11,941 nucleotides of DNA from Candidatus Baldrarchaeum yapensis (GTDB lineage Archaea; Asgardarchaeota; Baldrarchaeia; Baldrarchaeales; Baldrarchaeaceae), in the NCBI GenBank assembly GCA_016840465.1, contig JAEOSH010000061.1, positions 1 to 11,941 of the forward strand, in the 5' to 3' direction. The stretch's first letter is position 1. Every line of letters begins with the position of its first letter. The position numbers were made by a program, and so were the translations under genes. The notes under the pieces are model-generated. The model was not told the DNA's origin. It was given only the letters and a program-made list of their open reading frames with translations, and searched no databases. Positions 4,860-6,698 of the stretch are shown here, piece by piece.

Positions 4860-5373
4860 TCAATAATTGAGCGAAAGAGTTATCCTTTTAAATAAATCTA
4901 AGAGAATTCTTCTCAGTGCAAGAATTCTCTCTGAACCAACCACCAATAGATCATCAATCATCCTCTCAAAGCCCCTTAGGTTAAAACTTACCCTTTTATG
5001 AAAGCCAACTGGGTCGGTTGGCAAATTATATTTTCTAGAATGAATGTTGGACTCTTTTGCCGCATTCAGAATCCACTCTTCGAGTCTTGGCCTTAATACT
5101 ATTAAATCATTCCTCAGTACGATCATGTAATATATGAATGTCAAAATTCTTGAAATTCCTATCAATGCCATTTTTAGCTTAGAAATATAAGGTGGCTGAA
5201 CGCTAAACGGATCTTCGTCGATAATCCCCCATAAGATTCTCCGATCTCTCCATGATCCTGCGTATTCTCCCCTTTCCGCCCACATGTTGTAGTTTCCTCC
5301 GCGGAATTGCGATAAGCTTCTTAACAAGACACACGTCTGGTTTACATTCCACAAAAACTCTACCCCTACTCAT
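4860..5373 (-). pseudogene. Frameshifted Toprim-like partner of the ABC ATPase (about 170 aa when repaired)
   Basis: ATG at 5373-5371 overlaps the ATPase stop by 8 nt and follows GGAGGAGGAG. It reads MSRGRVFVECKPDVCLVKKLIAIPRRKLQHVGGKGRIRRIMERSENLMG, then an extra G in a G5 run (5226-5230) shifts it out of frame with IIDEDP...LIVLRPRLEEW. Uncorrected, the frame stops at TAG 5205-5203 (56 aa). The tracked 164-aa ORF carries a spurious 43-aa N-terminus. Confidence 0.75.
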
Positions 5374-6361
5374 GCTCCTCCTCCAAAAATTTACTTATAT
5401 CAAAGAAAATGTCTGTCTCCAGACTTAGAACTTCGGATAGGTCTTTTTCGCTAAGTGGTTTAACTTTAGTCTCGTAATCCTTGAAATATGTTATCAAGAC
5501 TTTTACCTGGTCCTTGGGGGTCTTCTCGATTATCGAATGAAGGAAGTAGGGGTCGTGTGTCGAGATGAAGTATTGATTGTTTTCGTCCCTTGCTATCATT
5601 TCGGCGAGGATTTTTGTGTAATAAGGGAAGGCGTGGGCCTCGGGTTCTTCAAATGTAATTATTGAGTTTCGGTTGGACATGACGGCGGTAATGAAGAAAA
5701 TTACCCTTTGCAAAGTTTCTGATGCGAGATGGTACGGATAGGAAATGAAGATATCCTCATACTGCTTTAAAACTTCAATTTTTTGCTCCTGGGGCTTAAG
5801 TACAAGCCTGAGTCCGTATCTTTCCATTATGCTGTTAACGAGCGATCTTATACTTTTCTTTGTCAGCAAGATCATTAACAGGTTATCACCGGAAGGTGGC
5901 ATGAGAAATTCCGAACTTTTCCCAGGAAACTCCATCAAGACCGAAAACCTATAGAATTTAAAGTCCCTGAGCTCAGGTTCTAAGGTGCGAGAAAGACCTC
6001 CAGATATTGTAGCAACAAATAGACGTTTCTCCCCTGCCGTTTCTCTATCTTTGTGAAAATATCCGTGAAACTCTCCGTCCTTGAAAACTATCCTTAAAAC
6101 TCTATTATCCGCTCTTATTATAACCTCGTTCTCGAGATCCTCATCGTAAAAGATGTTGCTGAACCTCTCTATGCGCACGTATTTTCCGAGATCCCCATCA
6201 TGTCCTAGAAATGAGAGAAGTCCTATTGCCTCGAGAATATTAGACTTTCCGGTGTTTGGCTCTCCTATTAGAATATTGACCCTCCGGCACTTGATCTTCA
6301 GGTCTCTGATCGATTTAAAATTCCTTATTTGGAGAGTACCTATCACAGTGACCCCTTCCAT
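5366..6361 (-). CDS. ABC-type / AAA_15-AAA_21-like ATPase, 331 aa
   Basis: IRNFKSI start strand, Walker A GEPNTGKS, degenerate signature LASETLQR, Walker B TFEEPEAH, H-loop ISTHDPY. Alternative start GTG 6346. Confidence 0.9.
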   Translation of the reverse strand: MEGVTVIGTLQIRNFKSIRDLKIKCRRVNILIGEPNTGKSNILEAIGLLSFLGHDGDLGKYVRIERFSNIFYDEDLENEVIIRADNRVLRIVFKDGEFHGYFHKDRETAGEKRLFVATISGGLSRTLEPELRDFKFYRFSVLMEFPGKSSEFLMPPSGDNLLMILLTKKSIRSLVNSIMERYGLRLVLKPQEQKIEVLKQYEDIFISYPYHLASETLQRVIFFITAVMSNRNSIITFEEPEAHAFPYYTKILAEMIARDENNQYFISTHDPYFLHSIIEKTPKDQVKVLITYFKDYETKVKPLSEKDLSEVLSLETDIFFDISKFLEEEHE

Positions 6362-6387
6362 GCGTATCTCTACATTTCCAGATTTGA

Positions 6388-6395
6388 TTTAATAA
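6388..6395 (-). promoter_or_regulatory. Candidate TATA box for the ATPase operon
   Basis: TTATTAAA on the minus strand, 27-34 nt upstream of ATG 6361. Confidence 0.4.
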
Positions 6396-6611
6396 TACTG
6401 CAATCTAACACATTAGTTTCCTCATAAGAATTTATGTGCTTTTGTATGCGATTATATACACATTTCGGGAATTGACAGCCGTTTTTAAGATGTTATACAT
6501 TTTAATGGAGAGATATCTTGTCATCCTGTGAGCATTACTTTCTAAAATGCTAAGAATAGTAAATGACAAATAATATCACTTTGTAACGTCAAACGGGCGA
6601 AAATACCGGTG

Positions 6612-6647
6612 CTTATAAGGGAATACGATTAGAAAATCTTATAGACC
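6612..6647 (+). promoter_or_regulatory. Two candidate TATA boxes for the GH130 gene
   Basis: CTTATAAG (6612-6619) and purine run AGAAAA followed by TCTTATAGACC (6637-6647). SD GGAGGG at 6688-6693. Confidence 0.4.
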
Positions 6648-6698
6648 GCAATACCGCAAGAGCAATTTCAAGGGCGCCCGTCCGCCCGGAGGGATTTC

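Follow-up and report, generated by a model that had tools for sequence, protein, structure and literature searches.

The locus at positions 4,860–6,361 of the window (the 11,941-nt stretch of the Candidatus Baldrarchaeum yapensis contig JAEOSH010000061.1 that was analysed) is best explained, with a probability of about 0.8, as a horizontally acquired, split OLD-like cassette, in which the effector gene has become a fixed pseudogene with three indels and the ORF of the ABC ATPase is whole. Such a cassette would couple the translation of an ABC ATPase of ~330 aa to that of a stand-alone OLD-type Toprim protein of ~155 aa. The host assembly comprises 2.27 Mb in 100 contigs and is 96% complete, and DNA of the locus is contained in hydrothermal-vent, sediment and seawater metagenome runs.

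The features of the cassette are collected in Table 1. The initial annotation had pointed to an overlap between the ATPase stop codon and an ATG that is absent from the gene annotation, and to a strong Shine-Dalgarno sequence in front of this ATG. Both are present in the sequence, the latter as a putative Shine-Dalgarno-like stretch located in the codons for the C-terminal EEE residues of the ATPase, just upstream of the partner start. The translational coupling deduced from this arrangement is borne out in the wider family, in which a stop/start overlap is found in 47 of the 56 intact loci and measures 4 nt in 35 of the 47. The partner gene, which ancestrally coded for a protein of about 155–170 aa, is today read in alternating frames. 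Cassette and upstream spacer form an islet of low GC content (40.5% for the cassette and 36.5% for the spacer, against 49–50% for the flanking helicase and GH130 genes), and this low GC is counted as foreign composition. Within the region, AT content is highest in the 337-bp spacer that precedes the ATPase gene (6362–6698).

Table 1. Features of the cassette in window coordinates.
Feature	Position	Strand	Basis or remark
Intact ABC ATPase gene, 331 aa, OLD/AriA/SMC-head type	6361..5366	minus	ORF and Pfam
Pseudogene of the small OLD-type Toprim partner	4860..5373	minus	HMM matches split over two frames
Overlap of partner ATG (5373-5371) and ATPase stop (5368-5366), 8 nt	5366..5373	minus	Within CATGAGTAG
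Shine-Dalgarno-like stretch GGAGGAGGAG	5375..5384	minus	Direct sequence reading; putative
Low-GC islet, cassette plus upstream spacer	4860..6698	none	GC content
Frame break 1, G5 tract, one base surplus relative to the family frame	5226..5230	minus	
Frame break 2, A5 run, one base short	5171..5175	minus	
Frame break 3, around G5112, either one base surplus or two bases lost from a codon	5110..5113	minus	

The frame that opens at the ATG at 5373 closes after 56 codons (at 5203), and a second frame runs on to 4860. As proposed in the initial annotation, the two frames join into an open frame of 170 aa when the G5 tract is read as four G, and this read-through carries the VECKPD, GGKG and IIDEDP motifs. 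The match of the read-through to its family is more than chance, since it is colinear across the G5 site with about 50 intact homologues of ~155 aa, with E values down to 1e-30. A word-indexed search with the read-through yields 50 homologues of about 150–160 aa, which have neither a Pfam domain nor an informative name, and an exhaustive profile search extends the family to 1,418 cluster representatives at 50% identity (E ≤0.001), 356 of them at ≤1e-30. Nearly all of the best 150 of these 1,418 representatives are 146–170 aa long, and the stand-alone form is thus the rule. Assignment to a named family had not been possible at the outset, and the read-through and 45 family members are likewise without a match in Pfam (E up to 1–10), NCBIfam and PADLOC (E up to 1). 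No mention of the family was found in the papers on OLD proteins that were consulted (PMC10568477, PMC12796447, PMC7049728).

Conservation of the gene pair, which had been named as a condition for a two-gene system, is found throughout the family. A locus scan using one genome per species returns 77 loci from archaea and bacteria, including Thermococci, Methanophagales, Methanosarcinales, Asgard-type MAGs, Bathyarchaeia, Dehalococcoidia, Verrucomicrobiota and Bacteroidota, and an ATPase homologue lies directly upstream of the partner in about 70 of the 77 (E 1e-57 to 1e-117). Hence, the proposal of an undescribed archaeal two-gene system stands as far as the conserved pair and the uncovered family are concerned, whereas its restriction to archaea does not, the family being present in many bacterial phyla. 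The neighbours of the cassette are housekeeping genes that differ between genomes, and the cassette is therefore regarded as a self-contained two-gene unit. For instance, on a 259-kb metagenome contig (L094:6297-10700) it is located inside a purine operon, flanked by a purQ-like GATase_5 gene and a purL-like FGAR-AT/AIRS gene. At two other loci (L095:8471-9043 and L096) the partner gene is followed, with a 4-nt overlap, by a Macro-domain gene, which may be a lineage-specific third component.

A Toprim fold with an acidic triad had been suggested for the repaired partner from its motifs, and the predicted structure indeed shows a Toprim fold of the OLD type. The model was built for the intact partner of the closest relative, from the same order (locus L087), using 45 sequences, and has a pLDDT of 93.9. 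In VIA-align, it is most similar to Thermus scotoductus OLD (TsOLD, PDB 6p74; Z 9.5, residues 373-525) and to the C-terminal regions of BpOLD and XccOLD (8.8–9.4), followed by GajA (7.1–8.0), AriB (5.9–6.3) and retron Eco2 (5.7). An exhaustive, Foldseek-independent comparison with 48,161 PDB representatives gives Z ≥8 for TsOLD 6p74 (9.5) and the BpOLD C-terminal region (9.0) only, with GajA at 7.5, AriB at 5.9, retron Eco2 at 5.7 and unrelated Rossmann-like folds at ≤5.8. In the ESM Atlas, the model resembles the C-termini of fused AAA_15/21 nucleases and PF20469 OLD-like_TOPRIM proteins with a TM of 0.67–0.71, the PF20469 proteins standing at 0.67. Foldseek against the PDB returns no match at E ≤0.001, its top match being the BpOLD C-terminal region (E 0.039), and at the sequence level neither Pfam OLD-like_TOPRIM (PF20469) nor another Toprim model matches the read-through or the 45 members at E up to 1–10. 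When the profile of the partner family is compared with PDB sequences, the sole match is to a PCI domain (E 0.3) and is spurious. The fourth-best structural neighbour of the partner is PDB 2p62 (Z 6.5, 133–143 residues aligned), an uncharacterised structural-genomics protein of Pyrococcus horikoshii (PH0156), which may be another archaeal stand-alone Toprim-like protein.

The conserved residues of the family point in the same direction as the predicted fold. Invariant in 21 sequences are E9, C10, D13, H30, D52-E53-D54-P55 and P95-R-L-E-E-W100, and in the set of 45 sequences D-E-D-P and P-R-L-E-E-W remain invariant, with a conservation of ≥90% for the E, C and D. The model places the conserved Glu after strand 1 and D-E-D at the end of strand 3, which is the classical Toprim arrangement. 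The partner residues E-x3-D, D-x-D and E-E also occur in the same order as the metal residues of TsOLD, for which E377, D431 and D433 have been assigned to metal A and D381, S478 and E480 to metal B (PMC7049728). Taken at the level of the model (Z about 9) and of the motif order, the partner is an OLD-type Toprim protein.

Inactivation of the effector had been ascribed to the G5 tract alone. Two further frame breaks, which had not been described, are found downstream in the partner gene, and comparison with the family indicates that the gene carries three frame-disrupting lesions, not one. Past break 2, the ancestral reading would be NGIDRNFKNFDIHILHDRTE (5172-5113), which lies in the other frame, that of the N-terminal part, and past break 3 the reading is back in the frame of NDLIVLRPRLEEW. 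The stretch NGIDRNFKNFDIHILHDRTE resembles the family consensus in having a hydrophobic strand followed by an Asp, where the present frame gives MALIGISRILTFIYYMIVLR; the middle segment contains MALIGISRILTF in the present frame and NGIDRNFKNFDIHIL in the alternative one. The 20 residues between breaks 2 and 3, at about residues 67–86, match the family in the other frame only, with a gain of 13 to 18 bits. An HMM built from 26 close homologues assigns 174.3 bits to the triple-frame reading and 155.8 to the single-G repair, and when the alternative segment is shuffled 2000 times, the real score is never attained. An independent HMM of 142 previously unused representatives gives 154.6 against 141.6 bits, with 1 of 2000 shuffles attaining the real score, and in pairwise alignments the triple-frame reading outscores the single repair for 179 of 191 homologues.

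It could be argued that the G5 tract is the single lesion, in which case the middle segment would be divergent, lineage-specific sequence and the inactivation recent. Variability within the family is highest in the middle region, which makes the evidence for breaks 2 and 3 statistical, and the reading with a single repair still scores 147–156 bits. However, the gain in the other frame appears with both HMMs and is equalled by at most one in 2000 shuffles, whereas the segment as presently framed fares no better than its own random permutations, scoring below their mean with the HMM of 26. In addition, an A-run is present where the frame switches, and the switches bring back the hydrophobic strand and the Asp typical of the family. 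A single lesion is therefore considered unlikely. Breaks 2 and 3 compensate each other and hence may have been tolerated in a working protein before break 1 arose. An open frame obtained by the removal of one base can thus conceal further compensating frameshifts.

Full-length effector could also be produced from the broken gene by programmed ribosomal frameshifting, and the sequence CUU-AUG-GGG-G might in principle permit a +1 slippage. Against this, the ribosome would have to shift three times with alternating sign, about 68 of the 84 homologous loci in a census of the family are read in one frame, and a conserved recoding signal was not seen. Frameshifting of this kind is scarcely credible, and a gene disrupted by mutation remains the preferred reading.

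All three lesions are identical in eight assemblies, namely the window and seven others obtained from other samples with different assemblers, and in the contigs of four additional runs that come from four studies. Over the 536 bases around the partner gene, the window and the seven other assemblies are the same apart from two SNPs, and in the contigs of the four runs, which have a depth of 26–92, the G5 tract is identical and indels relative to the window are absent. Homopolymer errors arise in some sequencing technologies, which would make an assembly or sequencing error at the G5 tract conceivable; given the same tract in all eight assemblies and in the contigs of all four runs, such an error is extremely improbable. 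With 24 SNPs in 9 kb, the eight assemblies are close to clonal, and fixation of the lesions accordingly holds for one lineage only.

The same data bear on the proposal that the tract slips reversibly, so that G5 would be a contingency switch and a slip to G4 would revive a working effector by phase variation. Indels are frequent at homopolymers, a homopolymer is located exactly at the first break, and one G fewer opens the frame of 170 aa. However, the two other frame breaks persist after a slip of one G, and the product would contain a scrambled core segment of 20 residues as a consequence of the three lesions; a change from G5 to G4 would reopen the frame without restoring the ancestral protein. 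Moreover, neither a G4 allele nor any variation in tract length occurs in the eight assemblies or in the contigs of the four runs (contigs hide minority alleles), five G make a short slippage tract, a near-invariant His is missing from one allele as well, and the intact homologues are predicted as continuous ORFs across the position of the tract. A switch is thus quite improbable, even more so than a single recent lesion, and the fixed pseudogene is retained as the explanation.

Constraint on the module appears to be relaxed, since its SNPs change residues. All six SNPs in the module (two in the partner gene and four in the ATPase gene) alter an amino acid, compared with 5 of 14 in the flanking genes (Fisher one-sided p 0.012). 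One of them, a C/T SNP at window position 5000 (column 5362 of the population alignment), replaces the near-invariant His of the partner's LH motif with Tyr in two of the eight assemblies. All three indels, on the other hand, are confined to the shorter gene, for which p is about 0.04 under an even spread of indels per base, and the ATPase is therefore somewhat better preserved.

An intact ATPase beside a broken effector had been put forward as the pattern expected for a toxic effector. The distribution of the indels agrees with this; in the census of 84 loci, by contrast, preferential loss of the effector is not significant, and the count is biased in that the partner motif served to find the loci. 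About 17 of the 84 loci are decayed in that one or both genes are broken, affecting the partner only in 6, the ATPase only in 4 and both genes, or remnants of them, in 7, and the broken loci are broken at differing places. Erosion of the cassette is thus common in the family, without a clear bias towards the effector, and the loss of a toxic effector with retention of the ATPase fits the data, though with weak support. In another genome of the same phylum (G028), the partner gene is frameshifted at a different site (L092:1277-1770, HMM positions 2-80 and 70-154 in two frames) and adjoins an intact ATPase of 355 aa. The reverse situation is also encountered, in which the Toprim partner is intact and the ATPase is frameshifted (L022:4110-5013) or internally deleted (L079:4275-5007).

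The ATPase of the window is recognised by the Pfam models AAA_15 (58.8 bits; cut-off 32.1) and AAA_21 (49.5 bits; cut-off 27), and retains all 35 columns that are invariant across an alignment of 34 family members. PADLOC returns weak, partial matches of about 40–68 bits, mostly to the Walker A region, for AriA, HEC-01A, GajA, AbiLi, NsnB, Old and PDC-M38A. AriA is the top model (2.4e-19, 60–68 bits), matching part of the length only and with a score close to those of GajA, AbiLi, NsnB and HEC-01A. The best match among PDB sequences is T. scotoductus OLD, which is weak (E 0.0014). In the model of the ATPase family (pLDDT 91.4), the protein consists of a bare SMC/Rad50-like head that carries a short helical insert, and it is about equally similar to SMC, Rad50, RecN, GajA (Z 17.4), TsOLD (Z 17.1) and PtuA, all within a range of Z 17–20; in this fold search, OLD-type heads are not distinguishable from SMC or Rad50 heads. 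A complex prediction for the ATPase and the partner of the closest relative has a score of 0.01, which has no bearing on binding either way.

By analogy with OLD, Gabija GajA and PARIS, the ATPase of intact copies would have a sensing and regulatory role, and the Toprim protein would be a two-metal nuclease effector whose acidic E-x3-D, D-x-D and E-E residues bind the metals. Association of the two proteins and a role in defence or abortive infection may be expected on the same grounds. In the lineage studied here, the effector gene is a fixed pseudogene, with the near-invariant His also replaced in one allele; its loss may have been tolerated, or favoured as that of a harmful component, and the ATPase is possibly orphaned beside a dead effector. 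Alternatively, the family could be a distinct split-OLD class, made up of a bare ABC ATPase and a Toprim of Class 1 size, that archaea, including Asgard-related lineages, share with bacteria. In the present lineage, selection would then keep the ATPase after loss of the nuclease because it serves a separate purpose, such as sensing for another effector or acting as its decoy. A non-defence role has reportedly been described for an archaeal OLD protein, Cran1. This combined reading seems rather unlikely, although a little less so than a single lesion in the partner gene, and the decayed cassette described above is the reading we prefer.

The family is large, with >1,400 clusters at 50% identity in both prokaryotic domains, and is not contained in Pfam, NCBIfam or PADLOC 2.0. 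The copy in the window is decayed and adds little on the family itself, while illustrating how a cassette can be lost through erosion of its effector. An intact member, on the other hand, would be a compact model of an ABC ATPase that controls a Toprim nuclease in trans.

In the published scheme, OLD proteins are divided into Classes 1–5 and the unnamed clades U1–U11, and Class 4 (PARIS) is the sole class in which ATPase and Toprim are split (PMC10568477; PMC12796447). The present family departs from the single-polypeptide Classes 1, 2, 3 and 5 in that ATPase and Toprim are encoded by separate genes at essentially all loci. The Class 1 proteins, such as T. scotoductus OLD (6P74) and phage P2 Old, share with the cassette the combination of an ABC ATPase with a minimal Toprim domain lacking the helical insert of Class 2, and the TsOLD segment to which the partner aligns best is similar in length to the 155-aa partner. 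Class 1 genes also sit alone among housekeeping genes (PMC10568477), as the cassette does. In contrast to Class 1, however, the cassette consists of two separate, translationally coupled genes, its ATPase is shorter (about 325 aa) and has a short helical insert only, and its partner does not match Pfam OLD-like_TOPRIM at the sequence level.

PARIS likewise produces ATPase and Toprim from adjacent, separate genes, and the logic of OLD, Gabija and PARIS that had been recognised in the pair is upheld, as is the remark that the partner is much smaller than AriB. AriB, a DUF4435 protein, has about 300 aa, against about 155 aa for the partner; none of the 45 partner members matches AriB or DUF4435 in Pfam and PADLOC, and in structure the partner resembles OLD and GajA more than it does AriB (Z 9.5 versus about 6). 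Class 4 OLD has also been reported in a 2025 survey to be restricted to bacteria (PMC12796447), whereas the cassette family is common in archaea too. Gabija GajA, a Class 2 OLD, resembles the cassette in its Toprim domain (Z 7–8) and in its ATPase; unlike Gabija, the cassette has split genes, lacks the helical insert and is not accompanied by a UvrD-like GajB neighbour. The PADLOC candidate pairs HEC-01, PDC-M38 and AbiL also combine an ATPase with a small Toprim-like or RloB-like partner, and their models HEC-01B, PDC-M38B and AbiLii match none of the 45 partners at E up to 1. Based on the shared logic, on the absence of matches to the partner components of PARIS, AbiL, HEC-01 and PDC-M38, and on a structure nearest to the Class 1 Toprim, the family is filed as a split variant of the OLD kind that has not previously been covered.
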